From Gemmataceae bacterium (GTDB lineage: Bacteria > Planctomycetota > Planctomycetia > Gemmatales > Gemmataceae), in assembly GCA_009691815.1 (NCBI GenBank), contig SIAL01000001.1, positions 1 through 37,240 of the forward strand: 37,240 bases of DNA, in the 5' to 3' direction. Every line of letters begins with the position of its first letter. Within the stretch, counting starts at the first letter, position 1. Below are positions 11,866 through 29,912 of this stretch, piece by piece. Position numbers and translations under genes: made by a program. The notes beneath the pieces are model-generated. The model did not search any database and was not told where the DNA came from. It saw only the letters and a program-made list of their open reading frames with translations.

Positions 11866-13328
11866 TTTCGCAACATGGGGAGGTTTGGGTTTGCCCTTGG
11901 GACGATGGGCCCACTCCTGAGGAATTGTTCAAGATTCTAGCCGGTCATTCGCATGTCGCCTGGTTGGATAGCGCCGTCAATCCCCATGGGTTGGGACGAT
12001 GGTCCTATATGGCAAAAGACCCTTGGAAAATCATTTCAGGCCGAGTGGGGCGCTTTGAGGTGAAAGGAACATGTTCCTTTTCCGACGACCCTTGGCAACT
12101 TTGGGAAAGCCAGCAAACCCCACATTCCAAACCAGATTCGAACTCAAGCCTGCCGCCGTTCCAGGGGGGCTGGATTTTTTCGTTGGGTTATGAATTGGGT
12201 CGAACCACGGAGCAGCTTCCAAAGGCATTGCACGACGAGTTTGAAACACCCGACTTGTGGGCTGGCGCCTACGACACCATTGTGGCTTGGGACCACGAGG
12301 AGGGGCAATGTTTTGTCCTAAGTTCCGGCAAAAGCGCCGACAAAGAAACCGATCGCAAAGCCAAAGCAAGCGCCTCGATTCTTGCCATAATGAACTTGCG
12401 ACCGAAAGAAACCAGTGGATTTCCAAAGCGCGGGTTGATTGAAGTCAGTCCGCCGGGCCGAGTTTGTGTCCCGTTGCCCCGTTTTCCTCACCTTTTGGTG
12501 TATAGCCCCATCATACGATCCGCCTTTGAGGAGAATGTCGCAAAAGTTGTGGAGTACATTCACGCAGGGGATTGCTTTCAGGTCAATTTGGCACAAAGAC
12601 TATTGAGTCGCCTTAAAGGCGCACCTGAGGAGCTCTACTTGACACTAAGGCGTGTCAATCCGGCTCCATTTGCTGGATATTTGGACATGGGAGACACGGT
12701 TGTGGCGAGTGCTTCTCCCGAACGGTTTTTGCGACTTGGCCCAGAGGGTTGGGTGGAAACAAGGCCGATCAAGGGAACCCGCCGACGGGGAACGACCCCT
12801 GCGGAGGATGATGCTTTGGCGAGAGAGCTTTTGTTGAGCGCAAAGGATCGGGCGGAAAATGTGATGATCGTGGACCTAATGCGCAATGATTTGGGCCGTG
12901 TATGTCGTCCGGGATCGATTTCCGTGGATGAGGTGTGTCGGTTGGAAAGTTATCGGACGGTACACCATTTGGTCAGCGTGATTCGGGGTCGGCTTGGGGA
13001 AAACAAAAAGCCCGGTGACTTGCTTCGGGCCACCTTTCCCGGAGGATCGGTGACAGGAGCGCCAAAAATTCGGGCCATGGAGATCATCACCGAACTGGAA
13101 AAGGTGGCTCGGGGACCCTATTGCGGGTCGATTGGTTGGTTGGGGGATAACCAACAAATGGATACGAACATCCTGATTCGCACCTTCACCGCCAAGGGTG
13201 GATGGGTTCAGTTTCCCGTTGGTGGAGGCATCGTTGCCGATTCAATCCCCGCCATGGAGTACGAGGAGACCTTGCACAAAGCCGAAGGACTCTTGCGGGC
13301 AATTTCCCATCGAATAGGCGGAATTTGA
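11862..13328 (+). CDS. pabB: Aminodeoxychorismate synthase component I (chorismate-binding enzyme, PabB-like)
   Basis: C-terminal chorismate-binding signature: ENVMIVDLMRND, FPGGSVTGAPKIRAMEIITELE, RGPYCGSIGW. The TTG start overlaps the upstream stop (TTGA), so the start is uncertain. PabB versus TrpE/other family members cannot be separated by eye; the DHPS-like neighbour favours PabB. Confidence 0.85.
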   Translation: MISQHGEVWVCPWDDGPTPEELFKILAGHSHVAWLDSAVNPHGLGRWSYMAKDPWKIISGRVGRFEVKGTCSFSDDPWQLWESQQTPHSKPDSNSSLPPFQGGWIFSLGYELGRTTEQLPKALHDEFETPDLWAGAYDTIVAWDHEEGQCFVLSSGKSADKETDRKAKASASILAIMNLRPKETSGFPKRGLIEVSPPGRVCVPLPRFPHLLVYSPIIRSAFEENVAKVVEYIHAGDCFQVNLAQRLLSRLKGAPEELYLTLRRVNPAPFAGYLDMGDTVVASASPERFLRLGPEGWVETRPIKGTRRRGTTPAEDDALARELLLSAKDRAENVMIVDLMRNDLGRVCRPGSISVDEVCRLESYRTVHHLVSVIRGRLGENKKPGDLLRATFPGGSVTGAPKIRAMEIITELEKVARGPYCGSIGWLGDNQQMDTNILIRTFTAKGGWVQFPVGGGIVADSIPAMEYEETLHKAEGLLRAISHRIGGI

Positions 13329-13424
13329 GCGGATCCCAATCTTTGGCCCTAGGGGACGAAACAGGACCGAAACCGTAGAATTCCTCAGTGGGTATTAGAG
13401 CTGGAATCTTAGGTGGAAAACGGA

Positions 13425-14624
13425 ATGTTAGGCATTTCAAAGATGGCGGCCGGGGTGGAACCTTCGGCAACTTTGGCGGCGGCGGCAAGGGCGAGGCAGC
13501 TCAAGTCCGAAGGCAAAGATGTTCTCGATTTTAGTGTCGGTGAACCCGACTTCCCCACTCCAAAGTTTATTTGCGATGCTGGAAGCCTTGCCATTACACA
13601 GGGAAAAACACGATATACCCCTGCTTCAGGGACTGTCGAACTGCGTAAAACCATCGCCTCATGGTATGAGTCGGAGTACGGCCTTTTGGTCACCCAGGAA
13701 CAAGTAATAGTTTCCGGCGGGGCCAAGCAATCCATTCACAATACCTTGGCGGCATTGGTTGGGCCGGGCGACGAGGTTATCATTCCCACCCCGTATTGGG
13801 TTAGCTATGGTGATTTGGTAAAGATGACCGGAGCAACCGCGGTTTTGGTTCAAACCACACTTGATAGCGGTTTCAAAATGACCCGGGAACAGCTTGAAGG
13901 GGCAATCACTCCGCGAACCAAACTTTTAATGCTCAATTCCCCTTCCAACCCGACCGGGGTGGTTTATTCTAGATACCAACTCGAGGCATTTGCCGAGGTG
14001 GTTGTCGCTCGAAATATTGGAGTTATTTCGGATGAAATATATGAGAAATTGGTATTTGGTAATACCAAGGCCACATGTTTTGCCACCCTCCATCCAGCCT
14101 TGGCTGAACGGGTTATCACCATTAGCGGCGTGAGTAAAACCTATGCCATGACCGGATGGCGTATCGGTTGGGCCATCGGGCCCAAACATGTTGTATCCGC
14201 CATGGGAAACATTCAAAGCCAAGAGACCAGCAATCCCTCCAGCATTAGCCAAGAAGCGGCTCGGGCCGCCCTTACCGGCGATCAGGCGTTTCTTGAACCG
14301 ATGATAAAAGAATTTGAGGCTCGGCGGGATTTGATTTGTTCCGGGCTGAACAAAATCCCGGGCATTCGGTGTTTTGTGCCCGATGGGGCCTTTTATGCTT
14401 TCTTTGATATTTCAGGTACATTTGGCAAATCGGTTGCCGGCGGCCCATTCCATACCGACACGGAATTTTGCCAAGCCGCTTTGGATCATGCTTTGGTTTG
14501 CTTGGTTCAAGGATCCGCGTTTGGCGCCCCGGGCCATGCGCGATTGAGCTTTGCGGCAAGTCGATCCCAACTTGAAGAAGGACTTAGGCGGCTGTCCCAT
14601 TGGTTGGCAAAAACATCCCCCTAA
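13425..14624 (+). CDS. Pyridoxal-phosphate-dependent class I aminotransferase (aspartate aminotransferase-like)
   Basis: PSATL...GKDVLDFSVGEPDFPTP N-terminus, NSPSNPTG, and PLP-lysine block SGVSKTYAMTGWRIGW. I prefer ATG 13425 (AGGTGG 8 nt upstream) over the GTG at 13413 used by the ORF track. Confidence 0.9.
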   Translation: MLGISKMAAGVEPSATLAAAARARQLKSEGKDVLDFSVGEPDFPTPKFICDAGSLAITQGKTRYTPASGTVELRKTIASWYESEYGLLVTQEQVIVSGGAKQSIHNTLAALVGPGDEVIIPTPYWVSYGDLVKMTGATAVLVQTTLDSGFKMTREQLEGAITPRTKLLMLNSPSNPTGVVYSRYQLEAFAEVVVARNIGVISDEIYEKLVFGNTKATCFATLHPALAERVITISGVSKTYAMTGWRIGWAIGPKHVVSAMGNIQSQETSNPSSISQEAARAALTGDQAFLEPMIKEFEARRDLICSGLNKIPGIRCFVPDGAFYAFFDISGTFGKSVAGGPFHTDTEFCQAALDHALVCLVQGSAFGAPGHARLSFAASRSQLEEGLRRLSHWLAKTSP

Positions 14625-14669
14625 TTTTCCAAATAGTAAGTCTGGTCACAATCTAGGAGGAGCGGTTTC

Positions 14670-15644
14670 ATGGCACTTTTCATCGATGAAGTTCATGTCC
14701 GAAGACTTTTGGATTGGGGCTTGGCGTTGGAAGTTGTCGAGAAAGCGTTTCGAAAGATCGGCCTAGAAGAAGCCACCAACACCCCAAGAAGCCGCGGACA
14801 AACCGATCATGTTCATGCCTACGCCATGATTGGGGGTGCCAAGGGCATGGCCGCCCTTGGCGTTAAGATTCAAACAACCCATAGCAAGTCCCGCCCCGAA
14901 ACCATGTTGGCTTTGTTTGATGCCAAATTGGGCGGACTAACCTGTTTAATGAAGGCAGCTTACCTTGACCAAATTCGGTGTGGGGCCTCGGGTGCCGTTG
15001 CCATCAAAACGCTGGCCCGAATGGATGCCCACACGGTTGGTATTTTGGGTTCGGGAACGCAAGCCCGGATGCAGCTTCGAGGGGCTGCGTTGGTACGAAA
15101 TCTTAAGAGTGTAAGAGTTTTTTCCCCTACTCGAGAAAACCGAGAATCGTTTGCCCGGGAGATGGCAGGGGAAACCGGGCTAGAGGTTCATGCCGTAAAC
15201 ACCGCGCAGGAAGCGGTCGTTGGGGCGGATTTAATCCTCTTGGCGACAACCGCCCGCGAACCGATCCTCGAGGCTGAGTGGATTTCTCCCGGGGCCCATA
15301 TCAATGCCATGGGTGCCACCTTTTTAGGCAAGGTAGAGGTCCACCCCAATGTATTCCTCAAAACCGGGTTGGTTGTTGTGGACCATAGGGAAAGTGCCCG
15401 GCTTGAGGCGGGAGACCTAGTGGAACCGATTGAATCCGGTGCTCTTCATTGGCGAGACATCCACGATTTGGGGCCGCTTCTTGTGGGTCGTTATGAAGGC
15501 AGAACTTCGGAAGATCAGATCACCTTATTCAAAGGGGTGGGGCTTGCCGTTTGTGATGTTTGCCTTGGTCAGGCCGTTTTGGAAAGGGCAATTGCTGAGG
15601 GGATTGGACACGAGGTCCCATGGGGCCAATGCAATGGCATTTAA
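14670..15644 (+). CDS. Ornithine cyclodeaminase/mu-crystallin family NAD(P)-dependent enzyme
   Basis: Family-typical layout with Rossmann loop VGILGSGTQARMQ and HINAMGA block. AGGAGG sits 9 nt upstream of the ATG. Confidence 0.85.
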   Translation: MALFIDEVHVRRLLDWGLALEVVEKAFRKIGLEEATNTPRSRGQTDHVHAYAMIGGAKGMAALGVKIQTTHSKSRPETMLALFDAKLGGLTCLMKAAYLDQIRCGASGAVAIKTLARMDAHTVGILGSGTQARMQLRGAALVRNLKSVRVFSPTRENRESFAREMAGETGLEVHAVNTAQEAVVGADLILLATTAREPILEAEWISPGAHINAMGATFLGKVEVHPNVFLKTGLVVVDHRESARLEAGDLVEPIESGALHWRDIHDLGPLLVGRYEGRTSEDQITLFKGVGLAVCDVCLGQAVLERAIAEGIGHEVPWGQCNGI

Positions 15645-15656
15645 TGGCCATTGCAT
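15629..15656. other. Perfect 10-bp hairpin at a convergent gene junction (possible bidirectional terminator)
   Basis: atgcaatggc / gccattgcat with an 8-nt loop that contains the stop codon of the 14670-15644 gene. It lies between convergent genes. There is no clean T-run on either side, so function is uncertain. Confidence 0.3.
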
Positions 15657-15670
15657 CTCGCTCGCATTCG

Positions 15671-16387
15671 CTATTTGCCTTTTAATGGTTTTTTTTCCGG
15701 CCCGTTAGCCTCGGAACCGGATTCCAAGGCCATCCATTTGGTGTCAAGTTTCCCCATCAATTTCAATTGGCCAATTTGCACCTCACCCTTTTCGGCCAAA
15801 AACTCAACCTGCTTGGGTTGATTCATGACCTTTGGAAAAACGCTTCCAAACTGGAATGTGCCGAACTTGACCGAGCTTTTTTGATCGTCAATTTGCCAAT
15901 CCACGGCAATGGGGCGCTTGCCCATGTCCTTTAGTTTGTAGGCTTGTTGGCTCAGGTTTTTTCCTAAAACCTGAAGAATCACTTTGTTGGAGGTTGTCGT
16001 TGGCTTACCCATAACAAGCTCGATCTTATCCGTCGTTTGAATCAGGGTGCCATGGGGATTGGTGGGGAGGATCAAAGTGACGATGCGGACATCATCCCAA
16101 ACCGCTTTGTGCCGAAGGACTGAGCCAACGGGAAGCGTGATCGAACCCTTTTGAAGCCTCAAGCCTTCCTGGGGGGTGAAGTCGTCTAGCTGGGATTTGT
16201 TGATAAAGGAATAGGTCAAGTTTACGCGATTGGTGGCTTTATCAATTTCCAGTTTGCCCGCAAATCGTTTTTTTAAGGATGCCCAATCGGGGCCGTCTCC
16301 TCCGACGGGATCTTGGGCGGTTCCCAAATGAACCACCAACCCAAGGCTAAGGGTTAAAAAACAAAGGGCCAAGGCACACCGCACCAT
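15671..16387 (-). CDS. Secreted hypothetical protein (238 aa)
   Basis: ATG start and signal peptide MVRCALALCFLTLSLGLVVHLGTAQDP, followed by beta-rich-looking sequence and a Lys-rich C-terminal tail. It lies 40 nt downstream of the 1018-aa gene. Confidence 0.7.
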   Translation of the reverse strand: MVRCALALCFLTLSLGLVVHLGTAQDPVGGDGPDWASLKKRFAGKLEIDKATNRVNLTYSFINKSQLDDFTPQEGLRLQKGSITLPVGSVLRHKAVWDDVRIVTLILPTNPHGTLIQTTDKIELVMGKPTTTSNKVILQVLGKNLSQQAYKLKDMGKRPIAVDWQIDDQKSSVKFGTFQFGSVFPKVMNQPKQVEFLAEKGEVQIGQLKLMGKLDTKWMALESGSEANGPEKKPLKGK

Positions 16388-16427
16388 GATGACCTTATTT
16401 CTGGGCCAAAAAACGGCCCGTGAAAAG

Positions 16428-19400
16428 CTACCCTTCTTTGTTCAAAAAGAGAACCAACCCAACGGAGGCCAGATCCACGAGGAGGCCGCAGATGGATAAA
16501 AGGCGAGCTTTGCCCGGTTTGATTCCTTGCGAGGATCCAAGCATTCCTAGTTGGACCAGTAAATCCAAACTGGCAAAAACGCCACCCACTAAAATTTTAT
16601 TGCCGTTAATCCCCAAACTGGATTTTAACCAATGATTGTCCAGCAGCATTCCACAAGGCACGGCAACCAGAATGGCGACACCGATCAACAGTAGGAAAGA
16701 GGTGATCGATTCCCCAAGGAGAGAGATTAGTGCCTCTCCACCGGTTTTTCCCGAATAAGCCGGGTCATGGACCAGTGGGAAAAGGAGTAATGCTTTAACA
16801 AGGGCCGCGATCAAGAGGCCTACTAATAGCCAAATCAAGAGAGGAGAGATCTTGAAATTGCTAAAGACTCCAAGGATGTTGGAATAGTCGTCGGTCCAAA
16901 GGGCAAGGTTGGGGTTGGGGGTAGGTTCCAACCAACAGGGTTCCCAAAGTTGGGCCACGCCGGCCAAAGTGGTTCCCAGATCGGAAACAGGGCCAAATGG
17001 CATAATGGCCAAAGGCTGGGCGATTCCCAAGGTAGTTCCCGTTTGAACCGCCGTGTTTAGCGGGCCCATCAATCGGGAAAGGTCGCTTGGTTTTCGCGCC
17101 AAAGCAACCCAGGTGGAAGCACTTTTCCCGATGTGGTCTTCTGTGGAATCGCTATTCACCAAAATGGCCATATTGCGCTTCTCGGCAAGATTGGCCAGCA
17201 CGGGTTCCAAGCGGAGGTACCGATTGCTCACATGAAACACAATGATCCCATCTTCCGTCAGGCGATCGAGGTAGACAGACATTGCCTCGTTGGTAAGCAG
17301 GTGAACTGGAATGGCATCCGAGCTGAAAGCATCCACGGCAATGATGGAATATTTGGTGGTCCCGGAAAACTTGGGCTTTTGCAAAGTTACCCGCGCGTCA
17401 CCCAAAATGAGCTGGAGCTTCGCACCGCGTTCGCTAGCCAATTGGGTGTAATGGAAAAACGCCTTCTTTTCATCGAAGGAAATGTCCTTTACTAGGGGGT
17501 CAATGTCATAAAAGTCAAATTGTTGTCCTTCATGGGCGTAGGTAGCCAAGGTCCCTGTCCCCAAACCGATAACGGCAACCGCCGGGTAAACACCTTTGGC
17601 GTTTTTGTTGCCATAGTTTTCAAGAACCTGACCAATGGGGCCGGTACGATGGTAATAAGTAAGCGGAATAGCCCTAAGGTTTTCGTTTACCGGTTGCATC
17701 CCGTGAAGGGTCGTTCCGTGAAGCAGGCGGGTAAATTCCACCCCTGATTCGATTTGCTTCTCAATTTTCAAAGCTCCGAAAAAACCCCGGGATTGCCAGA
17801 CGGCGGATTTGTCAAACATCCCGGCAAAAGTGGATCCGGCTATCACCGAAGCCACACCAAGGGCAAAACGCATGGGACGATCGACAAGGGTGTAACAAAG
17901 GATACAGGGAACACCATACATCAGGATGTAAAGGCCCCCTCGGAACATATCCGGCGATTGGAACATTTTCAGAAAGGGTATGGGGCTGGGTTCCGCGCCT
18001 GAGAACCAATTTTGAATGGGATAGTAAATGGTGTTGGAATAGACCCCAAGATTGAGCCCAATCGTCAAAACACCAAACGCCGCAGGCAAGGCGAGGTCAA
18101 AAACTTCGGCACCACCTAACTTTCCACGAAACCAAAGGTTCGTGGCCCAAACCACGCCAAAACCTGTGAGAAGGGCAAAAAGCCAAGCTCCTGAAATCAC
18201 TTGGCTTGACCCATCCCGATCCCAACTTCGGATGGTAATGAAAACCATGGTGAAAAACACCGCGCCAACGGCTAATAAAAGGTCGGCAAGCCGAGTGAAT
18301 TTGGTATCCGCGGCCACCCCAAGCGGAGGCACAAGCATACAAGCAACAACAAGGGCGACCTGATACTCCGCAATGGTGGGGAAAAGCATCGGTGCAAGCA
18401 ACCCGTTAAATAGGCCCCCAACAACACCTCCTAGCGACATATAGAGGTAAAAAGAGGTCAGGTTCTCCGGGGCGGGCCGACTTCGAGCCAACTCGCCGTG
18501 ACAAACCATGGAGACTAAAAATAGAACGGCGAGGTGAACCCCGATCAGGTTCATAATATCCTGCCCCGGTTTGATTCCCGAAAGCATGAGGAATAACAAA
18601 AGCAGAACACCTAGGGGCATCAACAGAATCATAGTGAAATGGACACCCGCCGGGATACGGGCAAACACCAAGATGAAAGACAAAAGGTAAATGGCCAATG
18701 GGGCTACCCAAAGGAGCGGGATTGCTGCAATATCTGTGGTCATGTAAGTGGTGGCGCCAAGCATCAAACTGGAAGGGACCGCTCCCAAAAATATCCAGCG
18801 AAGTATTATTGACTGGGGGATCGGTTTGGCCGGGTTATTCGATGCTTGGGTAGAAGTCTCGCGGACCGAATCCGGTGCGATTCTCAAAAGCCATGCGCAC
18901 ACTCCGGTGAAGATTACCAAGACCCCATACCCCATTCCCCAGCCCCATCGCTGATGTTCCAAAGTAAGGTAGGGTTCGACAAAGGCGGGATAGCCTATGA
19001 GGGCGATCATGCTTCCTAGATTGCTTGCAGCATAGAGGAAATAGGGATCCGAAGCTGCGGGGTGTCCAGTTCGACTAAACCAACGCTGAAGAAGCGGGGC
19101 GCTGGCGGAAACAATGAAAAAAGGAATACCCGCCGAAAGAAATAAAACTCCCAAGAGCTTTGGAATGAGAAAACTCTCGGTGTCGGAAAGCAAATCTTCA
19201 TGAATGGTGATCGGAAAAACAAAAAGGAACGGGATCATCATTAGAGCAAGATGAACGATACTCTGGCGACGGACACCCAGATACTTTGTTGAAAAGTGGG
19301 CGTAGGAATATCCTCCCAAAAGAAGGGCCTGAAAAAACACCATGCAGGTATTCCATACCGCCGGTGTTCCCCCAAGCAGCGGAAGGATCAATTTGCCCAC

Positions 19401-19484
19401 CATGGGTTGCACCATGAAAAGCAAAAGGGCGCTGGTGAACAGGGTCAAAGTAAACGCCGAAAGTGTTAAAAATGCCGATTTCAC
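16428..19484 (-). CDS. Fused polytopic membrane domain / spermidine synthase-like (class I SAM-fold) protein with an extra C-terminal 4-TM module (1018 aa)
   Basis: The GTG start is supported by alignment to the paralogue. Membrane blocks: LLLFMVQPMVGKLILPLLGGTPAVWNTCMVFFQ, DPYFLYAASNLGSMIALIGYP, LFLVSMVCHGELARSRP. Synthase-fold blocks: LLHGTTLHGMQ, VAVIGLGTGTLATYA, YDIDP, VDAFSSDAIPVHLLTNEA. Confidence 0.85.
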   Translation of the reverse strand: MKSAFLTLSAFTLTLFTSALLLFMVQPMVGKLILPLLGGTPAVWNTCMVFFQALLLGGYSYAHFSTKYLGVRRQSIVHLALMMIPFLFVFPITIHEDLLSDTESFLIPKLLGVLFLSAGIPFFIVSASAPLLQRWFSRTGHPAASDPYFLYAASNLGSMIALIGYPAFVEPYLTLEHQRWGWGMGYGVLVIFTGVCAWLLRIAPDSVRETSTQASNNPAKPIPQSIILRWIFLGAVPSSLMLGATTYMTTDIAAIPLLWVAPLAIYLLSFILVFARIPAGVHFTMILLMPLGVLLLLFLMLSGIKPGQDIMNLIGVHLAVLFLVSMVCHGELARSRPAPENLTSFYLYMSLGGVVGGLFNGLLAPMLFPTIAEYQVALVVACMLVPPLGVAADTKFTRLADLLLAVGAVFFTMVFITIRSWDRDGSSQVISGAWLFALLTGFGVVWATNLWFRGKLGGAEVFDLALPAAFGVLTIGLNLGVYSNTIYYPIQNWFSGAEPSPIPFLKMFQSPDMFRGGLYILMYGVPCILCYTLVDRPMRFALGVASVIAGSTFAGMFDKSAVWQSRGFFGALKIEKQIESGVEFTRLLHGTTLHGMQPVNENLRAIPLTYYHRTGPIGQVLENYGNKNAKGVYPAVAVIGLGTGTLATYAHEGQQFDFYDIDPLVKDISFDEKKAFFHYTQLASERGAKLQLILGDARVTLQKPKFSGTTKYSIIAVDAFSSDAIPVHLLTNEAMSVYLDRLTEDGIIVFHVSNRYLRLEPVLANLAEKRNMAILVNSDSTEDHIGKSASTWVALARKPSDLSRLMGPLNTAVQTGTTLGIAQPLAIMPFGPVSDLGTTLAGVAQLWEPCWLEPTPNPNLALWTDDYSNILGVFSNFKISPLLIWLLVGLLIAALVKALLLFPLVHDPAYSGKTGGEALISLLGESITSFLLLIGVAILVAVPCGMLLDNHWLKSSLGINGNKILVGGVFASLDLLVQLGMLGSSQGIKPGKARLLSICGLLVDLASVGLVLFLNKEG

Positions 19485-19520
19485 GGGAGTGTTCCAGTTG
19501 CAGGGTGTGAAAGAAGGGAC

Positions 19521-21950
19521 CTATTTTAAGATCCCAGGTAGGTTGGAATAGTCATCGGTCCATACACCAAAGCCCTTATCGGGATTAAGTGGGGACCACT
19601 TTTCGGTCCAAGTTTCGCCGTTTCGTTCAAAAGTGGATTCTTTTTTGGCCAAGGCGGCCAAGGCGCCAAGGGAAGGGGCCATAACCACCCAATTGGTCCC
19701 ATATTTCACCTCCTCGGCATGCTCAAACCCGCCCTGAATCATCGCTTTCATTCCCACCGCTTCGGCCATATTGCCAAGCACAGGTTCAAAATTCAAATAA
19801 CGATTGGCAATGTTAATGACCACAATTCCCTCGGGGGTGAGTTTGGATTTGTAGATTTCAAAGGCTTCTTTGGTGAGCAGGTGAACCGGCACAGCATCGG
19901 AAGTAAAAGCATCCATGAATATCAGGTCGTATTTGCCATCTTTTGACTGGTTCAGTTTGCGTCTGCCGTCACCCAGTTGGATGTTTATATTCACTCCCCG
20001 CCTTATCGCGTCCGGAATAAAAGTGAACAGGTCCTCCCGTTTGGTGGCAATCTCCACAACGGCGGGATCAATCTCAAATAGGTCAAGCGACCAATTGGTT
20101 TCCATGTAGGCCGCCAAGGTCCCCGTTCCCACCCCCAAAACACCCACATTTAGGGGTCGTTTTAGGGTCGCGGCTTTTTCTCGCATGGCTTCGAAAAGTT
20201 GGCCAATTGCACCTTTATTGTGAAAGTAGGTTACCGTGTCCCGTCGGCGGGCAATCGGTTCGTATGCCTGCATTCCGTGGTTGGTCGTGCCATGGAGCAG
20301 TTTGTGATAGAGGGTACCATCCTTTTCCCTTTCGGCGATAATTTGAAAGGTCCCGAAAAAGTTGCGCTCTTCATGGAGGATATCCAATTTTTCGGGGAGT
20401 CGATCAAGGATGTGTTCCCGCAAAAAGGCGGTGGGGATCCATTTGGTGATCCAATCTCTTCCTGTTTCCAAGGGAAGGAAATTGATGGCCAAAAGGATTG
20501 CTCCGGATGCCAACCCAAAAACAAAGATCAGCCATGTGCAGGCTTGTTGAAGTCGTCGGGAAAGGGCGCCTTGGCCCGCCACCCTAATGACAGGGAGCAT
20601 CAGGCAGGCCATTACCGCCATGAGTGGATATTCCACCACTCTGTGAAAAAGGACAGGCGCGATGACCGTGTTGAAAATTCCGCCTAACACCCCACCAAAA
20701 GACATAGCCAAGTAGAAAAGGGTCAAGTGTTCCACCGAAGGTCGGGTGCGGGCCAACTCGCCGTGGCAAACCATGGAAACAAGGAAAAGCAAAAGCAAAT
20801 GAACCGATATGATTTCAAGCTCGCTAAGGCCAAGGGACTCCCTTAAAGCCGGGGCAAAAATGGTTCCCAAAATGCCAAACGGAAGGAGGAAAATCATTAA
20901 GTTATGCTGGCTGACAAAAGACTTTGAAGCAATCCCCGCCCCCAATAGGGAAATGCCCACAAAGAGGAACTCCACCAAACGCAAAGTGCCCCCCGTGCGC
21001 AGGAATTCGCCTAACCAAGTGGGAAAGCCATCGTCAGTAACCGTAAACGCAGAGGAGGGGCCTTTGTAAAGGAATAAGAAATAGGTGGTGATGCCAAGGA
21101 TAATCGTGCCGGAAAGCCAAAGGGGAATGCGGGAAAAAACCAAAATAAAACTAAGAAGGTAAAGCGTTAGGGGGAGTATCCAAAGCAGAGGAATGGCTGC
21201 AATGTCGGTAGTTATGTAGGTAGTCACTCCAAGCATAACGCTTGAAGGGATCATGCCTAAAACGGTCCAGCAGAGGACCTTTGAAAGGGCGATTTTTTCG
21301 GAAGGTGCCGCCGGGGTTACCGGGTCATCCTCAGGCTTTAAGGAAGCCATGGCAAACTTGCCTGTCCAAAGGATGAGTCCCGATAAAACAACAAAACCAA
21401 CCAGCCAGGCGATACCCTGTTCAAAAACCCCTAATTTAGGTTCCACCCAAAAGGGATAAGCAATCAACGCCACCATGCTTCCCAAGTTGCTGGCACCATA
21501 AAGAAAGTAAGGATCTTTGGCATCTGGGTGGGTTGTTTTTGAAAACCACCTTTGAAGCAAGGGGGCGGTGGCGGCAACCGCAAAAAAAGGAAAACCGGCC
21601 GTAAAGAAAAGCACCACAAGTAACCAAGGAACCGGGCTTGTGGCCTCGGGGGGCAGGAAGATTTTCGCAAGGGGGGCAACATCAAATCGCAGCCCCGCCA
21701 GCGGAATTAGGGCCAGCACCAAAACGATGGCATGAATCCGCCACTGTTTTGCAAGGGTAAAGGATTTTCCAAGGAAATGGGCATATCCATACCCTGCAAG
21801 CAAAAGGGTCTGAAAAAACATCATGCAGGTATTCCACACCGCAGGCGTGCCTCCCAGCCAAGGAAGGAGGATCTTACCCACCATGGGCTGCACCGCAAAT
21901 AACAAAAGGGCGCTTGCAAGTAGTGTGAGGGCGAATGACCCTAAGAGCAT
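19521..21950 (-). CDS. Fused polytopic membrane domain / spermidine synthase-like protein, paralogue (about 809-813 aa)
   Basis: Carries the same conserved blocks as 16428-19484: LLLFAVQPMVGKILLPWLGGTPAVWNTCMMFFQ, LFLVSMVCHGELARTRP, LLHGTTNHGMQ, VGVLGVGTGTLAAYM, FEIDP, MDAFTSDAVPVHLLTKEA, WTDDYSN. The ORF track uses TTG at 21962; the ATG at 21948-21950 (MLLGSFALTLL...) aligns better with the paralogue. Confidence 0.85.
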   Translation of the reverse strand: MLLGSFALTLLASALLLFAVQPMVGKILLPWLGGTPAVWNTCMMFFQTLLLAGYGYAHFLGKSFTLAKQWRIHAIVLVLALIPLAGLRFDVAPLAKIFLPPEATSPVPWLLVVLFFTAGFPFFAVAATAPLLQRWFSKTTHPDAKDPYFLYGASNLGSMVALIAYPFWVEPKLGVFEQGIAWLVGFVVLSGLILWTGKFAMASLKPEDDPVTPAAPSEKIALSKVLCWTVLGMIPSSVMLGVTTYITTDIAAIPLLWILPLTLYLLSFILVFSRIPLWLSGTIILGITTYFLFLYKGPSSAFTVTDDGFPTWLGEFLRTGGTLRLVEFLFVGISLLGAGIASKSFVSQHNLMIFLLPFGILGTIFAPALRESLGLSELEIISVHLLLLFLVSMVCHGELARTRPSVEHLTLFYLAMSFGGVLGGIFNTVIAPVLFHRVVEYPLMAVMACLMLPVIRVAGQGALSRRLQQACTWLIFVFGLASGAILLAINFLPLETGRDWITKWIPTAFLREHILDRLPEKLDILHEERNFFGTFQIIAEREKDGTLYHKLLHGTTNHGMQAYEPIARRRDTVTYFHNKGAIGQLFEAMREKAATLKRPLNVGVLGVGTGTLAAYMETNWSLDLFEIDPAVVEIATKREDLFTFIPDAIRRGVNINIQLGDGRRKLNQSKDGKYDLIFMDAFTSDAVPVHLLTKEAFEIYKSKLTPEGIVVINIANRYLNFEPVLGNMAEAVGMKAMIQGGFEHAEEVKYGTNWVVMAPSLGALAALAKKESTFERNGETWTEKWSPLNPDKGFGVWTDDYSNLPGILK

Positions 21951-22046
21951 TAACGGTCGCAAGGGTCGGTCCCCAAATCACAAGGAGAGGGAATTACAAA
22001 GTCGTATTATGGGGAACCTTGTCAAAAAGGGTAGGAAATTAATGGT

Positions 22047-25000
22047 TTATTTCACTTTCCAAATGGGTTGGTCCCAAAAAAGGACCCAAGATTTCCATTC
22101 AGGTGTCTGATTCCTAGCGTCCATTTCATCCAAATCTATGAGATAGGTCGTTGCCATAGCATCATTTAGCACCGCCAAAGGTTGATCGCGGGAATCAAGG
22201 ACAAAAATCGGAACCTTGTTTTGCCCCGGACTCAGAAGTAAATGACCATCGGTTTGCCAAGGTTTCCCACCAGTATTCGGGAGGTCACTTTGACGAATTT
22301 GCAAACCTAGGGCCGCATCGAGGCCCTCCAGATTTTTTGCTACCAATTCACTTGGTGTATGGGCATCACGAAATAACCAACAGCGGTGATCAATGATCTC
22401 ATAGGCCAAACAATAAGGCGGTTTTTGATCGGTTGCCAATTGCAAACAAACTCCCCGTAAACCCATGCGATGGAGTCGGACCAGAGGGCTACCTTCCCCA
22501 AGAGGTTTACTGATCCTTTGGGAAAGTCCATCGCCATGGCGATGAAAAATCAAAGCAAGTTTTTCCTTGTGGTAGCCGATTTCCGATAGGATCCGCAACC
22601 TTTTGATGCCTTTGGCATGTCTAAGGCGCCGGTACGCTTTGGCCAATGTCCCTGAATGAAATCCAGGTGAAAAAAGCGACAGGAACGACTCACCGTGAGA
22701 ACCAATTCTAAGGCGTCCTAACCGGTTTGGTCGGTTGGCGGCATAGAGGCGCCAATTTTCCTTAAGTTCCCAAACCATGAATCCAAAAAACCCGGGAACG
22801 CCAAAAACAAACAATAGCGAGGTGGTATAGGCCACTGCCTTTTCCAATCCCAATTGTTCCAGTTGCCCGGCGATTGGAACGACCAAAACCAACATGAATT
22901 TGTGGCCAATGGTTACGGTCGGAAAATGTTTAATGGGGTTGATTTGGGGTTCGATCAAGACGGTGACCGCAAAGCGGAGGAAACCCAAAATCGGCTGGAA
23001 AATGGCTCCAAGTATTCCCTTGAATACCAGCGTGGCACCTTCCGTTTCGGGCTTGGGCCTAAGCCATTCGCTAATACCCAAAAGGACGATTGAAACCCAA
23101 TCCAACACTTGTCTGGCCAACCAAGCAAGCCATGCCGCCACACGATAAAGCGATTGAATGCCAAATTCGTGCATCCATTCCCCAAACAGATCCCACAACC
23201 AAGCATTTGCTCGGATAAAGGGTCGGCTGGCAAAAATGGCCATCAAAATGCCAAATACCAAAATCTGTAGGATTGGGCCAAAACCAATACCGGCTAACCG
23301 ATTCGCTAACAGCCAATAAACCACGGCGGCAAGCAAGGCTGGTTTAAGCCCCAAGGTCCATAACCAACGAATCGGTGGAAGTTCTAAAAGCGTTCGCACA
23401 GTGGGTGTGCGAAAAAAGTCCTTAGGGAGGGTCCAAAAGATAAAGCGAAATCCTTTGGCCAATTGGTAGAAAAAGGACAAGGTAAACCGTTTTACCAGAC
23501 CGACATGGAACAGACAGAGGAAATAAATAAAGGTGATCGCAAGGAGAGGGGGGCTTCCAAGTACGATTCGTTTTTCCACCTCTCCGTTGTGATTGGCATA
23601 GTCCTCAACCGAAGCAAAAACCGGCGTTGTCCAAGAAGTTGTTTCAAAGGTCGGGAGGTGGGCAGCTTCGGTTTCCAATATGGCATCATAAAGGTCCGAA
23701 TTGCGACCAACAAATCCCGCGAACTTGAGAAGTTCTTCGTGCATATATTGGGGAAATTTCCACAGAACAATTGTCATCAAAAAGGGCAGGATTGCCCAAA
23801 GCAGCACCAAGCGTCCCGTATTGGTCGCATAAAAAAGCGAACTTAATGCTTCCAACCCGGTGGTGTAAAACTCCCCTGGTCGATACGCCCCGGGGATCCG
23901 CCGTGCCATAGCTTTATCCAATTTGCGTAAAGGATCTCCCTGCCACCAACCGGAAACACCCGTCAAATCGGGCAATTTTAACTCATTCCGGGCCAAAATG
24001 TCGCGAAGGTCCCCAAAAGAAAGCTGCCTTGACTGCAATAGGCGTTCCACCATGTCTTCGATAATCGCATCTCGTGCGGCTTTTTCCACAAGATGGGTGG
24101 GGGCAAAGGAGGCTTCCTCCATGGCCTCTTGAAACTGAGGGGAAAAAGTATCTCGGATTTGTTTTTCCAATTGATGGACGGAGGCTTCTAGATTGGTGAT
24201 GATTGCCCCGATGACGGTCTCTTCAAGATCCGAGCGGAGAATCAAAAGCCTTGCCTTGAGAAGGGAACTTCTTGCTGAAAGCAATTCCACCCCGGGCAAG
24301 CTTTTTCTGATTGGGGCTTTGCCTAAGGAAATAAGCCAGCTCCAAGGACGCAGTTCACTCGGTTTTTGGGTTAGAATTACTCTTGCATCAAACACGGCAT
24401 GAAGGGCTTGATATTCCGGCCCGTCTGTGGTCTTTTGATTTGCGGCCACATCAAGCCAATGCAGGGCCCAATCGGGAACCGCACCACCCACCTCAAATAG
24501 ACCATCACCACCAAGGGTTTGGGCAAGATGTTTCCAGGCGGCTTTTTGCATCCGGCCCCGTGACCTGGTCGGTTCAACAAGGGCGGCGTCCAAATAAGTC
24601 AAACAAGCTTCAAAGTTCCGCCCCTCCGCCTCATGGCGCTTGGCGGTTCGAATGCAAAGGTCGTATTCCCGACCATCAAATTCTCGATCGGCGGGAACAA
24701 ATGTTTTTTCGGGCACAAGGGCCCGAAGTGTTGCCGGGTGGATGGCGCCCTCAGGTCGGCTGGCTGCCAGGTGATCTCGGGGACTGCCAACAAGTGTCAA
24801 CAAATCTTGGATCCGACCCGGTTCAAGGAGAGGAAACCAATCGCCAACTCGATCCGTTTCAAAAACCAAAAGTTCCAAAACAACCGACAGAAACTCCTCC
24901 AACACATGGCCTGTTTCGGCATCTGGGGCGATGAGGTTTTCTTCCAACAAAACGGTTCGGATCTCCCGGTATTCCATCCAGCCCAAACGGTCTACCCAGT

Positions 25001-25388
25001 CACCAGCGCGGGCATCATCCCAAACGCCCGCAATTTTGGCACGATGAACCGCCGCATGAATCCTGCCATGAAACAAATTCCGCCACAGCCATGTGAGGGC
25101 CTGATTACGGTCCCAAGAGCGCGTTTGGGCTACCGCGGGTTGGGCAATAAGCAACACGGTTTGATCAGGGCCACCGGGCGAAGGGAGTTCTTCAGGGGCA
25201 AAAACGCCCATATTGGAGAGGCTGGCATAGGGAATCAGATAGATTTCCGAATGAGGAAGGTTCCAGGCCAACCCCGGATAACCCAAATGCGCCTGAAGTA
25301 TATTTCGCAAAAGTTGCCGGGAGACAATTCGAGCCGAAGGTACAGTCTTTGTCGCAAGCGTTCCAAGTTCTTCCACCGACCAGGTCAT
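22047..25388 (-). CDS. Giant hypothetical polytopic membrane protein (1113 aa), no recognisable family
   Basis: Uninterrupted 3.3-kb ORF with an ATG start. It has a ~530-aa hydrophilic N-region, then roughly 8-10 hydrophobic segments (about aa 530-900), then a ~210-aa hydrophilic C-region. I recognise no catalytic or binding motif. Confidence 0.8.
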   Translation of the reverse strand: MTWSVEELGTLATKTVPSARIVSRQLLRNILQAHLGYPGLAWNLPHSEIYLIPYASLSNMGVFAPEELPSPGGPDQTVLLIAQPAVAQTRSWDRNQALTWLWRNLFHGRIHAAVHRAKIAGVWDDARAGDWVDRLGWMEYREIRTVLLEENLIAPDAETGHVLEEFLSVVLELLVFETDRVGDWFPLLEPGRIQDLLTLVGSPRDHLAASRPEGAIHPATLRALVPEKTFVPADREFDGREYDLCIRTAKRHEAEGRNFEACLTYLDAALVEPTRSRGRMQKAAWKHLAQTLGGDGLFEVGGAVPDWALHWLDVAANQKTTDGPEYQALHAVFDARVILTQKPSELRPWSWLISLGKAPIRKSLPGVELLSARSSLLKARLLILRSDLEETVIGAIITNLEASVHQLEKQIRDTFSPQFQEAMEEASFAPTHLVEKAARDAIIEDMVERLLQSRQLSFGDLRDILARNELKLPDLTGVSGWWQGDPLRKLDKAMARRIPGAYRPGEFYTTGLEALSSLFYATNTGRLVLLWAILPFLMTIVLWKFPQYMHEELLKFAGFVGRNSDLYDAILETEAAHLPTFETTSWTTPVFASVEDYANHNGEVEKRIVLGSPPLLAITFIYFLCLFHVGLVKRFTLSFFYQLAKGFRFIFWTLPKDFFRTPTVRTLLELPPIRWLWTLGLKPALLAAVVYWLLANRLAGIGFGPILQILVFGILMAIFASRPFIRANAWLWDLFGEWMHEFGIQSLYRVAAWLAWLARQVLDWVSIVLLGISEWLRPKPETEGATLVFKGILGAIFQPILGFLRFAVTVLIEPQINPIKHFPTVTIGHKFMLVLVVPIAGQLEQLGLEKAVAYTTSLLFVFGVPGFFGFMVWELKENWRLYAANRPNRLGRLRIGSHGESFLSLFSPGFHSGTLAKAYRRLRHAKGIKRLRILSEIGYHKEKLALIFHRHGDGLSQRISKPLGEGSPLVRLHRMGLRGVCLQLATDQKPPYCLAYEIIDHRCWLFRDAHTPSELVAKNLEGLDAALGLQIRQSDLPNTGGKPWQTDGHLLLSPGQNKVPIFVLDSRDQPLAVLNDAMATTYLIDLDEMDARNQTPEWKSWVLFWDQPIWKVK

Positions 25389-25454
25389 CCTGAATACCCC
25401 AATGCCTGATCTATTGTTACCACGGTTATCCTAGGATTTTCCTTTACTTCCGGC

Positions 25455-25670
25455 CTATTCCTCATCGGGTTGGACAGAGTTTGGCGCATCCCCACTCAGT
25501 GCGGCATGAAGCTTTTCCGCATGACTGCCGTTCATCCAGCGACCCAAATCCACGAGTTGGCATTTTTTCGAACAAAAGGGAAAGGATGGCCATTCCGCCC
25601 CATGGGTAGAAGACCCAGGCATGGGTTTTTCACAAATCGGACAAAAAGGTTTTTTGGGCATGGTTGCCAT
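25455..25670 (-). CDS. yacG: YacG-like zinc-ribbon protein (DNA gyrase inhibitor family)
   Basis: CPICEKP...FPFCSKKCQLVDLGRW closely matches E. coli YacG CPTCGK...RPFCSKRCQLIDLGEW. The start may be Met4 (AAGGT 9 nt upstream). Confidence 0.75.
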   Translation of the reverse strand: MATMPKKPFCPICEKPMPGSSTHGAEWPSFPFCSKKCQLVDLGRWMNGSHAEKLHAALSGDAPNSVQPDEE

Positions 25671-25694: not shown

Positions 25695-26024
25695 TTAGTC
25701 TTTGGACTTCTTGGAGGGAGAAGCTTTGGGAGCGGGGGTTGATTCCTTGGCGGGTGCCGTCCCCTCTTTGGATGTTGTCGGGGCGGTGGAAGATTCATTC
25801 TTGGGGGCTGTATCCGCCTTGGCCGCCGTGTTATAGGAATCGGTTCGGTAGTCCGTTTCGTAAAATCCGCTGCCCTTAAAGAGAATGGCCGCTCCGGTCC
25901 CAAGAAGCCTTTGCAGTTTGTTCTTTTTGCATTTGGGGCACTTTTTCAGGGTTGCTTCGCTGAAGGACTGGAATTCATCAAAGCGATGGGCGCAGGCGGA
26001 ACACAAATATTCATAGGTTGGCAT
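25695..26024 (-). CDS. FmdB-family (CxxC_CxxC_SSSS) zinc-ribbon protein with a disordered tail
   Basis: MPTYEYLCSACAHRFDEFQSF...CPKCKKNKLQRLL...KGSGFY is the FmdB-type signature. The C-terminal ~45 aa form a low-complexity A/P/T/S/K-rich tail. Confidence 0.85.
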   Translation of the reverse strand: MPTYEYLCSACAHRFDEFQSFSEATLKKCPKCKKNKLQRLLGTGAAILFKGSGFYETDYRTDSYNTAAKADTAPKNESSTAPTTSKEGTAPAKESTPAPKASPSKKSKD

Positions 26025-27847: not shown

Positions 27848-29482
27848 TTAGCGAACCGCTCCGACAACTTTGGTGGCGTGGTCGTCCTCGTCGATCTTGG
27901 TGATCATTACTTCGGTGGTGAGCATTAGCCCTGCAATGCTTGTCGCATTGGAAAGGGCTTGTTTGGTTACCCGGGTCGGATCAATGACTCCCGCCTTGAA
28001 GAGGTCTTCATACTTCTTCGAGACTGCATTGAAACCAAACTGGGGACCCTTTTCACCAACAGACCGAATTTCTTCAATCACCACGGCGCCATCAAGGCCC
28101 GAGTTTTCGGCGATGGTCCGGGCGGGTTTTTCCAAGGCGCGGTAAACGATTTCCGCACCGACCTTTTCGTCTTCGTGCAGCTTCTTTATCAAGTCGGCAA
28201 CGGCCTTTTGGCAGCGAAGCAACGCGACACCACCACCCGGAACAATGCCATCGGCAATGGCGGCGCGGGAGGCATGCAGGGCATCTTCAACGCGGCCCTT
28301 GGTCTGTTTCATCTCGGCTTCGGTGGTTCCACCGACGCGAATGATGGCAACCCCGCCTGTCAGCTTGGCAAGGCGTTCGGTGAACTTTTCCTTGTCATAG
28401 TCCGACTCGGTTTGGTCCATCTGTTTGCGGATCTGGGAAATCCTCTTTTGGATGCCGTCCTTGCGGGCCGCATCCATCTTGCTCACCACAATGGTGCTGG
28501 CTTCCCGCTCCACGGTGACCTTTTCGGCCGTGCCCAAATGTTCAAGGGTTACATTCTCGATTTTGATACCGAGGTCTTCGCTGATAAAAGTTCCACCGGT
28601 AAGAATCGCAATGTCACCAAGAATGGCGCGCCGACGATCGCCAAACCCGGGTGCTTTGATCGCCACGACTTTGAAAACACCGCGCATTTTGTTGATAACC
28701 AAGGCGGCAAGCGCCTCGCTTTCAACATCTTCCGCGATAATGACGAGTTCTCGGCCAGCTTGGGCGACCTGCTCAAGCATGGGAACCATTTCACGGACAT
28801 TGTTGAGCTTCTTCTCATAGATCAAGATGAGAGGATTGTCCATCTTGGCGCTCATGTCCTCTGGATCGTTGATGAAGTAAGGAGAGATGTAGCCTTTATC
28901 GAACTGCATGCCCTCGACGAGTTCAAGCGTGGTCTCGGAGGTTTTTCCCTCTTCAACCGTGATGACTCCGTCTTTGCCTACCTTTTGGAAGGCCTCGGCC
29001 ATCATGTCGCCGATTTTGCGATCATTATTGGCGCTGATCGAGGCGACCTGAGCCACCTCTTCGGTGGAGGACATGGGTTTGGAGAGTTTGGTGAGTTCTT
29101 CAACCACTTTCTCCACGGCCTTGTCGATACCTTTTTTCACCGCCATCGGGTTGGCGCCCGAGGTAATGTTGCGAAGGCCTTCTTGGTACACGGCCAAACC
29201 GAGGATGGTTGCCGTGGTGGTGCCGTCACCCGCCTTGTCGGAGGTTTTTTGCGCCACGGCGTTGATCAACTTGGCACCCATGTTCTCGAAGGGGTCGGCA
29301 AGGTCGATTTCCTTGGAAACTGTCACGCCGTCCTTGGTGACCGTTGGTCCGCCAAAGCTCTTGTCGATGATCACATTTCGGCCGGTGGGCCCAAGGGTGA
29401 GCCCAACCGCATGGGCCAACTTCTCGGCACCTGCCAAGAGCTTTTTCCGGGCATCATCCGAGTAAAGCAACTGCTTCGCCAT
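27848..29482 (-). CDS. groEL: Chaperonin GroEL (Cpn60), copy 1, no GGM tail
   Basis: Full-length Cpn60 with [25 protein letters not shown] and [11 protein letters not shown] blocks. AAGGAG lies 8 nt upstream. The C-terminus ends [16 protein letters not shown], without the usual Gly-Met repeats. Confidence 0.97.
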
Positions 29483-29521
29483 CTGGTATCTCCTTCAAAT
29501 GAATGGGGGTTAGCCTAGGTG

Positions 29522-29836
29522 TTACTTGCTTGATACCAAGCGGGCCAAAATGTCGGACTCGCGTAGTATTTTGTATTCCTTGCCATTGATTAGGACATCG
29601 CTGCCCGCATAACGGCCATAAACCACTTCATCGCCTGCCTTGACGGAAAGAGCGGTTACGGTGCCATCATCATGGCGCTTGCCTTGACCCACGGCAACAA
29701 CCGAGCCCCTTTGGGGTTTTTGCTTGGCATTATCGGGAAGCAAAATGCCGCCAGAGGTTTTTTCCTCGGCTTCAAGTTGCTCCACAACCACACGGTCATC
29801 GAGGGGACGAATCGAAACAGGTTTCTCTTTTGCCAT
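29522..29836 (-). CDS. groES: Co-chaperonin GroES (Cpn10)
   Basis: Trimmed to MAKEKPVSIRPLDDRVVVEQLEAEEKTSGGILLP... (104 aa), a typical GroES. The ORF-track N-terminal extension has no support. Confidence 0.95.
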   Translation of the reverse strand: MAKEKPVSIRPLDDRVVVEQLEAEEKTSGGILLPDNAKQKPQRGSVVAVGQGKRHDDGTVTALSVKAGDEVVYGRYAGSDVLINGKEYKILRESDILARLVSSK

Positions 29837-29878
29837 GACCTTAATCTCCAAAAACAACTTAAAAAACGGAAGAAATTC

Positions 29879-29912
29879 AAAAAGGGAGAGCCCAACCCTT
29901 TGCTGGGCTCCC
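29879..29912 (-). terminator. Terminator-like hairpin between groEL copy 2 and groES
   Basis: On the minus strand, gggagccca/tgggctctccc forms 9 bp with a 2-nt bulge and a 9-nt loop. It starts 9 nt after the groEL2 stop and is followed by TTTTT. It may be a partial terminator. Confidence 0.4.

Follow-up and report, generated by a model that had tools for sequence, protein, structure and literature searches.

A stretch of 37,240 nucleotides from a Gemmataceae bacterium of the Planctomycetota (assembly GCA_009691815.1, contig SIAL01000001.1, positions 1 to 37,240), referred to below as the window, carries four neighbouring open reading frames (ORFs) on its minus strand (Table 1). In the order in which they would be read, these encode a giant protein of 1113 amino acids (aa), two paralogues termed B and A, each joining a membrane domain to a spermidine-synthase-like domain, and a small protein of 238 aa with a hydrophobic N-terminus. 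A first-pass annotation of the same DNA had treated the four genes as one dedicated system for alkyl or aminopropyl transfer, associated with the envelope. The comparative analysis described here points to another picture, in which A and B are probably active alkyltransferases belonging to a very large bacterial family, and the two remaining ORFs are their neighbours in one lineage.

Architecture and active site of the two paralogues

BLASTP aligns A and B at 38% identity in the membrane part (E = 2e-77) and 35% in the catalytic part (E = 8e-53). As the first-pass annotation had noticed, this paralogy is visible even in the DNA, where positions 19330-19430 and 21810-21910 are ~79% identical, and all the shared protein motifs quoted there are found in both A and B. 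A model of B, calculated with AlphaFold2 (AF2) from a 50-sequence alignment, reached a predicted local distance difference test score (pLDDT) of 89.3 and a predicted template modelling score (pTM) of 0.90. It contains ~14 membrane-length helices in residues 1-520, and residues 528-813 form a beta-hairpin sub-domain plus a Rossmann domain. All of its top 50 Foldseek matches in the Protein Data Bank (PDB) are spermidine synthases or polyamine aminopropyltransferases, except for MnmC2 at rank 49. These alignments span 245-311 columns, with target-normalised TM-scores reaching 0.62 and E values as low as 8e-7, so B contains the complete spermidine-synthase fold. The earlier division of each paralogue into a polytopic membrane domain and a spermidine-synthase-fold domain is thus borne out by the model of B.

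The two proteins also differ in layout. A is without the two-helix insertion of B and has extra helices before its catalytic domain. Its greater length is largely due to a C-terminal extension with four transmembrane helices predicted from hydropathy, which was missing from the first description. A-type orthologues of 1015, 986 and 1008 aa (loci L001, L005 and L007) match A in length, consistent with the tail being kept among them.

Active-site residues were compared in an alignment of 120 family members, consisting of the window pair, 48 database matches and 70 metagenome loci, with residues numbered as in B. G610, G612, D665, R667, D684, D689, P692 and H694 are invariant in all 120 sequences, and the ribose-binding position 630 is Glu in 107 and Asp in 13. 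H562 is likewise invariant, H557 and Q565 are nearly so, and A retains all catalytic-site residues. In aminopropyltransferases, the amine of the aminopropyl group of decarboxylated S-adenosylmethionine (dcSAM) is bound by the acidic residue in the GxG(D/E)G loop, a residue that also excludes S-adenosylmethionine (SAM). When the family is aligned to plant spermidine synthases with HMMER, GGGDGG pairs with GlGtGt and VD--SSDP with lDaFsSDa. Position 613, equivalent to the Asp of GGGDGG, is Thr in 64 members (including B, and A at T643), Ala in 35, Val in 8, Ser in 8 and Ile in 4, and is Asp or Glu in none of the 120. The best PDB sequence match of B, the methyltransferase domain of METTL13 (5wcj, E = 8e-5), has Gly at the aligned loop position. 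The caution voiced in the first-pass annotation, that a loop without the dcSAM-selecting Asp does not allow dcSAM to be assumed as donor, therefore applies family-wide. Its second remark, that the DSTDP-like acceptor motif is altered to DAF[ST]SDA, is correct for the motif, but both amine-site Asp residues are retained. This acceptor-binding pair, D173 and D176 of aminopropyltransferases in T. maritima numbering, corresponds to D684 and D689 in B, with a two-residue insertion relative to spermidine synthases.

Because the loop acid is absent while the nucleotide-binding residues are invariant, SAM is likely to be the donor used by A and B rather than dcSAM. On the evidence of these residues, both paralogues are probably active enzymes, namely SAM-dependent N-alkyltransferases (most likely N-methyltransferases) and not spermidine synthases. 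By analogy, they appear to work most like the N-methyltransferases that share the spermidine-synthase fold, a group of SAM-using enzymes that includes plant putrescine N-methyltransferase, the C-terminal domain of METTL13 (METTL13-C) and the fungal N-terminal histidine methyltransferase NHMT. Common to all of them are the fold, a non-acidic residue at the dcSAM-selecting position and a conserved ribose-binding acid. NHMT (AN4663) consists of seven transmembrane helices and a spermidine-synthase-like domain with Ile in the loop, and it has been shown to methylate the N-terminal histidine of proteins (PMC10349129). The GxG(D/E)G rule for dcSAM selection is stated in the same work, where the loop residue is I322 and the ribose acid E340, and the N-terminal polytopic membrane domain is required for activity, with the catalytic domain facing the lumen of the endoplasmic reticulum (PMC10349129). 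The N-terminal fusion of a membrane domain is an architectural parallel to A and B, the membrane domains being compared by description only. A and B differ from NHMT in being bacterial, in having 14 instead of 7 helices, and in a catalytic domain that would be cytoplasmic instead of lumenal.

Conservation is stronger in the membrane domain than in the catalytic domain, and representatives often show ~50% identity across the first 280 residues. The invariant motifs of the membrane domain in B are LPxLGGTPAVWNTCM, DPYFLYxASNLGS, TTDIAAIPLLW, MVCHGELARxRP and EYP, and the invariant polar residues include Q51, Y58, H62, Q137, D150, N159, D253, H400, R407 and E444. Under the 14-helix topology, which applies to B, the conserved motifs fall on both membrane faces. 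The even number of helices places the N-terminus and the catalytic domain of B on one side of the membrane, and this side carries 18 Lys and Arg residues compared with 10 on the opposite side. SAM is located in the cytoplasm. Helix parity, charge bias and SAM location together indicate that the catalytic domain of B would be cytoplasmic. The high pTM further indicates that this domain sits rigidly on the membrane domain, which suggests that the latter takes part in presenting or translocating the substrate.

An assignment of the membrane domain to the major facilitator superfamily (MFS) was tried and set aside, as Pfam, lenient scans, a PDB profile search and a test for internal repeats were all negative or uninformative. 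No MFS model of Pfam matched in 50 family members, or in isolated domains at E <= 10. The membrane domain as such found no match in Pfam, NCBIfam or PDB sequences, whether with isolated domains, lenient scans or the PDB profile search, and the top 50 Foldseek matches for B, a list dominated by the catalytic domain, contain no membrane protein. An hhalign comparison of its N-terminal and C-terminal halves detected no repeat (E = 0.13), although the repeats of MFS proteins are often undetectable in sequence. MFS proteins have 12 helices arranged as two homologous six-helix halves; the model of B has ~14, with a long loop after the sixth transmembrane helix.

A widespread family and its relation to spermidine synthases

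A and B are members of a known and annotated, biochemically uncharacterised family. Profile searches and structure prediction with Foldseek, proposed as checks in the first-pass annotation, confirmed the spermidine-synthase fold and placed both proteins with NCBIfam model NF037959, 'fused MFS/spermidine synthase'. B scores 64.0 bits against a cut-off of 40, whereas A, with 35.4, falls just below it. The match in B covers profile positions 283-393 of 480, which is the catalytic part only, and isolated membrane domains gave no match to this model. The canonical 480-residue model has roughly 6 helices as opposed to ~14 in A and B, with the two-helix insertion of B and the four-helix tail of A as further differences. 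A weak similarity was found by hhalign between the first six helices of the membrane domain and the membrane half of a canonical NF037959 member from Pseudomonas syringae (E = 0.0017, probability 15%), extending over 170 co-linear columns in which the motifs G(K/R)xLxPxxG..xxxW and LYxxSxLGS match.

With SpeE and other spermidine synthases, A and B have in common the complete fold, the ribose-binding acid, the adenine-binding Asp and the two amine-site Asp residues. They differ in that the loop Asp or Glu is replaced by T/A/V/S/I, DSxDP by DAFxSD and LDG..Q by HGT.HG.Q, and in their fusion to a large membrane domain. Additionally, they stay under all curated cut-offs of the spermidine synthase models: Pfam PF01564 (Spermine_synth) gave a sub-threshold 18.4 bits for B (cut-off 22.9) and nothing for A, and TIGR00417 (SpeE) gave 27.8 against a cut-off of 249.6.

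The family is very large. A search for full-length homologues returned at least 7,649 significant matches among 8,000 candidates, and the membrane domain alone detected 13,026 representative clusters (50% identity) at E <= 1e-3, and 4,558 at E <= 1e-30. Most of the best 150 membrane-domain matches listed are 700-1,280 aa long, and judging by these lengths they are probably fused as in A and B. A tblastn search of plasmids and secondary replicons recovered homologues of full length from Methylobacterium, Sphingomonas, Microvirga, Croceicoccus, Legionella, Pseudoalteromonas, Leptolyngbya and Calothrix. Where a feature is annotated, the Prokaryotic Genome Annotation Pipeline (PGAP) has mostly given it the name 'fused MFS/spermidine synthase', and the motifs seen in both domains of A and B recur in these homologues. 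Full-length homologues bearing this name include database proteins P0087 and P0102 and the plasmid-borne H2-H5 and H8 (83-88% coverage). Overall, identity to the PGAP-named homologues is 30-37% across 81-98% of the length, and these come from Sphingomonas, Legionella, Leptolyngbya, Isosphaeraceae and Gemmataceae. The family spans Planctomycetota, Alpha- and Gammaproteobacteria and Cyanobacteria.

The searchable literature yielded no biochemical characterisation of this bacterial family, and a recent survey of bacterial aminopropyltransferases contains nothing on it, in agreement with the earlier statement that the fused family has no experimentally established role. The closest genetic information concerns SpeE2 of Pseudomonas, an 847-aa protein required for induced systemic susceptibility in Arabidopsis (PMC7298707). 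SpeE2 has N-terminal transmembrane helices and a spermidine-synthase-like C-terminal domain with Thr at the D101-equivalent position, and it clusters apart from characterised SpeE proteins (PMC7298707). By published description only, it resembles A and B in architecture and in the loop Thr, and it may be related to their family. It differs in the E624 and P627 reported for its amine site, where B has D689 and P692, and in lying in an 11-gene locus without counterpart in the window.

A plasmid match from Pseudomonas syringae was considered as a candidate for SpeE2 and rejected, as it is a split canonical family member of 208 + 299 aa. This match (locus L172, 4045-5567, from a plasmid of pathovar actinidiae) is annotated as two coding sequences that overlap by 4 nt, representing either a split gene or a frameshift, in a conjugative (Dot/Icm-like) plasmid region. 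A different arrangement is seen in metagenome contig ODAK010015128.1 (locus L148, 6-7349), where three family members follow one another on one strand, a larger array than that of the window.

Gene order and the neighbouring ORFs

The four ORFs are present as first annotated, with gaps of 84, 36 and 40 nt in the order giant-B-A-238-aa gene, except that the start of B was extended to an upstream TTG. From its ATG, B has the length of a 98%-identical database protein (P0001), and the first gap is then 96 nt. No terminator-quality structure was detected in the gaps between the four ORFs by a hairpin scan and by folding against shuffled sequences, as had also been concluded from inspection. One weak hairpin (19516-19535) is at chance level (z = -1.0), the scan gave 33 terminator-like sites compared with 28 +/- 7 in shuffles, and intergenic folding energies indicate no greater stability than in shuffled sequence. 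The co-directional run does continue upstream, as noted before, through yacG, the FmdB-like Zn-ribbon gene, grpE and dnaJ, to which groEL can be added, with gaps of 66, 24, 49, 27 and 100 nt. Because equally tight spacing runs through these neighbours (yacG, grpE, dnaJ and groEL), it is no sign of shared function.

Conservation of gene order was assessed in 80 of at least 591 genome loci of the giant family, with 8 kb on each side, and in 80 metagenome loci of more distant A/B relatives. An A/B homologue occurs near the giant gene in 2 of 80 loci, both from close relatives of the window, and in none of the other 78. The giant gene adjoins A/B only in relatives whose giant protein has an identity of 51% or more, and three annotated giant-family contexts show unrelated neighbours. 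In the 80 loci from A/B relatives at greater distance, no homologue of the giant or the 238-aa protein was found, and the contexts of A/B homologues in Sphingomonas, Legionella and Leptolyngbya are mutually unrelated. All-against-all clustering of flanking ORFs revealed neighbour families recurring in at most 6 of 80 loci for A/B and 7 of 80 for the giant family. The commonest of these, identified by eye as chorismate synthase and Gfo/Idh/MocA-type oxidoreductases, are attributed to shared ancestry of the loci. No speD, speA or speB is present in the window, and no polyamine gene recurs near relatives. A role as a defence system was likewise examined and dropped, as PADLOC gave no match for any of the four proteins.

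Close relatives keep the arrangement to different extents. One contig of a clade at ~68% identity (L007) retains grpE, the Zn-ribbon gene, yacG, the giant gene, B, A and the 238-aa gene, and tblastn finds the same set in a second contig of this clade (L010). An 8.8-Mb Gemmataceae metagenome-assembled genome (MAG; L001, L008 and L009), in which B is 57% and the giant protein 51% identical, has giant-B-A without the 238-aa gene. These order-keeping relatives are syntenic over more than 20 kb, and the shared order can thus be ascribed to overall genome relatedness. At ~48-50% identity (L005, L006 and L089) the B-A pair is retained. Upstream of it, L005 and L006 have divergent family 2 glycosyltransferase (GT2) genes and a type II secretion cluster, with the giant and 238-aa genes absent, and tblastn detects neither gene in L089. 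After B-A, a convergent gene of the ornithine cyclodeaminase/mu-crystallin (OCD) type follows in L005 and L089; an aminotransferase gene is also found in L005, and only the OCD gene was detected in L089. These two genes were considered as partners of A and B and set aside as residual synteny, since they lie on the other strand and were not found beside relatives at greater distance.

The B-A tandem, which persists down to ~48% identity, is the sole persistent association. Two-helix insertions in B-type and pre-catalytic extra helices in A-type proteins are common to the respective orthologues, and by these type-specific indels the pair is judged to predate the split of the window lineage from that of L005. 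Elsewhere, tandem copies of the family are sporadic (5-6 of 80 loci) and mostly represent independent duplications. Taken together, the four ORFs very likely do not form one system, and their arrangement is a lineage-specific gene order. The dedicated four-gene transfer system of the first-pass annotation, which by its own terms was to be given up if related genomes showed no conserved synteny, is not upheld: the order is confined to close relatives, and the association is missing from 78 of 80 loci on one side and from all 80 on the other.

The giant protein stands apart as an orphan membrane protein of its own, conserved across Planctomycetota and not functionally tied to A and B. Its first ~520 residues form an all-alpha soluble region, transmembrane segments occupy residues ~523-885, and a C-terminal alpha/beta domain follows, so that the earlier label of a giant membrane ORF fits the central region and not the rest. 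The protein had also been called motif-less. In fact it carries strongly conserved family-specific motifs, EPQINPIKHFPTVT, WELKENWRLYAANRP, GSHGES and PGFHSGT, of which EPQINPIKHFP(V/T)VT, WELKENWRLYAANRP, GSHGE and PGFHSGT are the near-invariant forms across the family. It matched nothing in Pfam, NCBIfam, PADLOC or a PDB profile search, and its AF2 model (pLDDT 80.6) gave no fold match (best Foldseek PDB E = 0.15). At least 591 stretches encoding family members are present in a collection with one genome per species. These stretches cover all major orders of Planctomycetota, including Gemmatales, Pirellulales, Planctomycetales and Isosphaerales, together with Phycisphaerae, a MAG labelled Kuenenia and some MAGs of Myxococcota.

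At the N-terminus of the 238-aa protein, residues 1-19 are hydrophobic, in keeping with the signal peptide assigned to it previously. Only 7 homologues were found, all at least 62% identical; the gene is present in L007 and L010 and absent in L001, L008, L009, L005 and L089. By this distribution it is a young, lineage-specific and presumably exported protein, which makes it a neighbour of A and B and not a conserved partner.

Several further features of the window were recorded. Between the convergent 238-aa and OCD genes there is a perfect inverted repeat of 11 bp, which overlaps the OCD stop codon; it has a centroid energy of -21.4 kcal/mol (z = -1.3) and no T-run, and could be either a terminator acting in both directions or a hairpin formed by chance. 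The OCD gene ends a co-directional plus-strand block that also encodes a DUF6513/pterin-binding/DUF4346 protein, a chorismate-binding enzyme of the anthranilate or aminodeoxychorismate synthase type and a class I/II aminotransferase. This block, syntenic in relatives L001 and L008, may belong to a pterin or aminobenzoate-related pathway. On the minus strand, a 1045-aa protein combines DUF7133, HEAT repeats and cytochrome c, as is typical of Planctomycetota; its homologue adjoins a distant giant-family member in L004, probably by coincidence. Antisense ORFs opposite the giant gene and groEL are clearly spurious, and neither strand has a Pfam match where ORFs of 574 and 693 aa overlap.

Table 1. 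Features of the window and their positions.
Feature	Position	Strand	Remarks
1113-aa ORF (giant)	22047-25388	minus	ATG start
Giant motif EPQINPIKHFPTVT	22911-22952	minus	
Giant motif WELKENWRLYAANRP	22728-22772	minus	
Paralogue B	19521-21962	minus	813 aa from TTG; 809 aa from ATG at 21950
B membrane domain	20403-21962	minus	residues 1-520, ~14 transmembrane helices
B catalytic domain	19524-20381	minus	residues 528-813, beta-hairpin sub-domain and Rossmann fold
B G-loop GVGTGT	20118-20135	minus	
B DAFTSDAVPVH	19881-19913	minus	
B WTDDYSN	19542-19562	minus	
Weak hairpin	19516-19535		chance level
Paralogue A	16428-19484	minus	1018 aa, GTG start
A catalytic domain	16860-17795	minus	residues 564-875
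A G-loop GLGTGT	17550-17567	minus	
A DAFSSDAIPVH	17301-17333	minus	
A WTDDYSN	16878-16898	minus	
A C-terminal extension	16431-16859	minus	residues 876-1018, four predicted transmembrane helices (hydropathy)
238-aa ORF	15671-16387	minus	
yacG	25455-25670	co-directional	upstream of 1113-aa ORF; PF03884
Zn-ribbon gene	25695-26024	co-directional	upstream of yacG
Inverted repeat	15628-15657		11 bp, perfect
Pterin-binding to OCD block	10480-15644	plus	four products
DUF7133 protein	7220-10357	minus	1045 aa
ORF antisense to giant gene	24633-25409	plus	258 aa, spurious
ORF antisense to groEL	27959-29518	plus	519 aa, spurious
574-aa ORF	29921-31645	minus	antisense to 693-aa ORF
693-aa ORF	29672-31753		

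Proposed function and competing explanations

The most probable account, given a probability of about 0.6, is that three unrelated items lie side by side in the window: A and B as self-contained SAM-type enzymes, the orphan 1113-aa gene and the young 238-aa gene, brought together only in this lineage. A and B would descend from an ancient duplication within the fused MFS/spermidine synthase family, each acting as an enzyme on its own. In each, the spermidine-synthase-fold domain, probably in the cytoplasm, would bind a donor of the adenosyl-methionine type together with an amine acceptor, while docked rigidly on a ~14-helix domain with invariant polar residues on both faces. With Thr in place of the loop acid, the reaction would be a SAM-dependent N-methylation or another N-alkylation from SAM. 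The acceptor amine would be presented by the membrane domain or passed through it, and might belong to a lipid head-group, a polyamine or a protein N-terminus.

Several points weigh against this account. The choice of donor is drawn from one loop position and from analogy, and the role given to the membrane domain is a guess, as the domain has no detectable relative of known function. The amine site has a two-residue insertion (DAFxSD instead of DSxDP) and the extra conserved His residues H557, H562 and H694, so the chemistry could depart from simple N-methylation. Moreover, co-transcription of the four genes in the source organism is compatible with the data, and the order kept in close relatives (the clades at 68% and 51%) fits a lineage-specific operon. 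The four-gene envelope system, with the giant and 238-aa proteins as partners or substrates of A and B, has several points in its favour: the genes are co-directional, their gaps are 36-96 nt without convincing terminators, giant-B-A order is kept at 51-68% identity of the giant protein, and the 238-aa gene is kept at 62-87%. The same tight spacing, however, continues through yacG, grpE, dnaJ and groEL, and synteny with the order-keeping relatives extends beyond 20 kb. Beyond them the association dissolves, with 78 of 80 giant loci lacking A/B within 8 kb, none of 80 distant A/B loci having the giant or 238-aa gene, the 238-aa gene absent already where B is 57% identical, and relatives at ~48% differing upstream of B-A. 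A four-gene system is therefore considered very improbable.

The other explanations concern A and B themselves. A bolder version of the alkyltransferase account, which is speculative and held to be rather unlikely, regards the whole family as a class of SAM-dependent amine alkyltransferases integrated in the membrane that has so far gone unrecognised. The 14-helix domain would deliver or translocate a lipid head-group, an envelope polymer or the N-terminus of a secreted protein to an active site in the cytoplasm, and the B-type and A-type proteins, a conserved pair in Gemmatales-like planctomycetes, would form an obligate heterodimer. Spermidine synthases are habitually dimeric. If true, this would amount to a new envelope-modification chemistry in thousands of bacteria. 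Another proposal is that A and B are variant SpeE aminopropyltransferases that use dcSAM, with an MFS-type exporter or importer coupling polyamine synthesis to transport, the reading suggested by the family name at NCBI. The complete fold including the N-terminal beta-hairpin sub-domain, the two invariant amine-site Asp residues, the long loop after the sixth helix, the conserved motifs on both membrane faces and the weak hhalign match (E = 0.0017) of the membrane part, co-linear with a canonical NF037959 member, would all suit it. Set against these are the loss of the dcSAM-binding acid in 120 of 120 members, SpeE models far below cut-off (27.8 vs 249.6 for TIGR00417, 18.4 vs 22.9 for Pfam), a membrane domain with no Pfam MFS match in 50 members and no internal repeat, and the lack of speD or any polyamine gene in the window or recurring near relatives, which together make the proposal unlikely. 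It is more doubtful still that the spermidine-synthase-like domain is non-catalytic and serves as a SAM or polyamine sensor gating a transporter formed by the membrane domain. The stronger conservation of the membrane domain and the altered SpeE motifs could be read in this way, but the G-loop glycines, the ribose acid, the adenine-binding Asp and the amine-site Asp pair are invariant across several phyla, as would be expected of an active enzyme.

For the window itself the message is negative, in that the four-gene 'system' is a local gene order and A and B alone merit focus. The 1113-aa orphan family, phylum-wide and without a known fold, deserves an entry of its own. For the family of A and B, the database name that combines spermidine synthase with MFS is probably misleading, given that the loop acid is absent in every member examined and an MFS signal is undetectable. 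SpeE2, which alters plant immunity, is the only related genetic datum found, the link being one of architectural likeness. Identifying what the A/B family alkylates would correct a widespread annotation and might reveal a new membrane-coupled modification.

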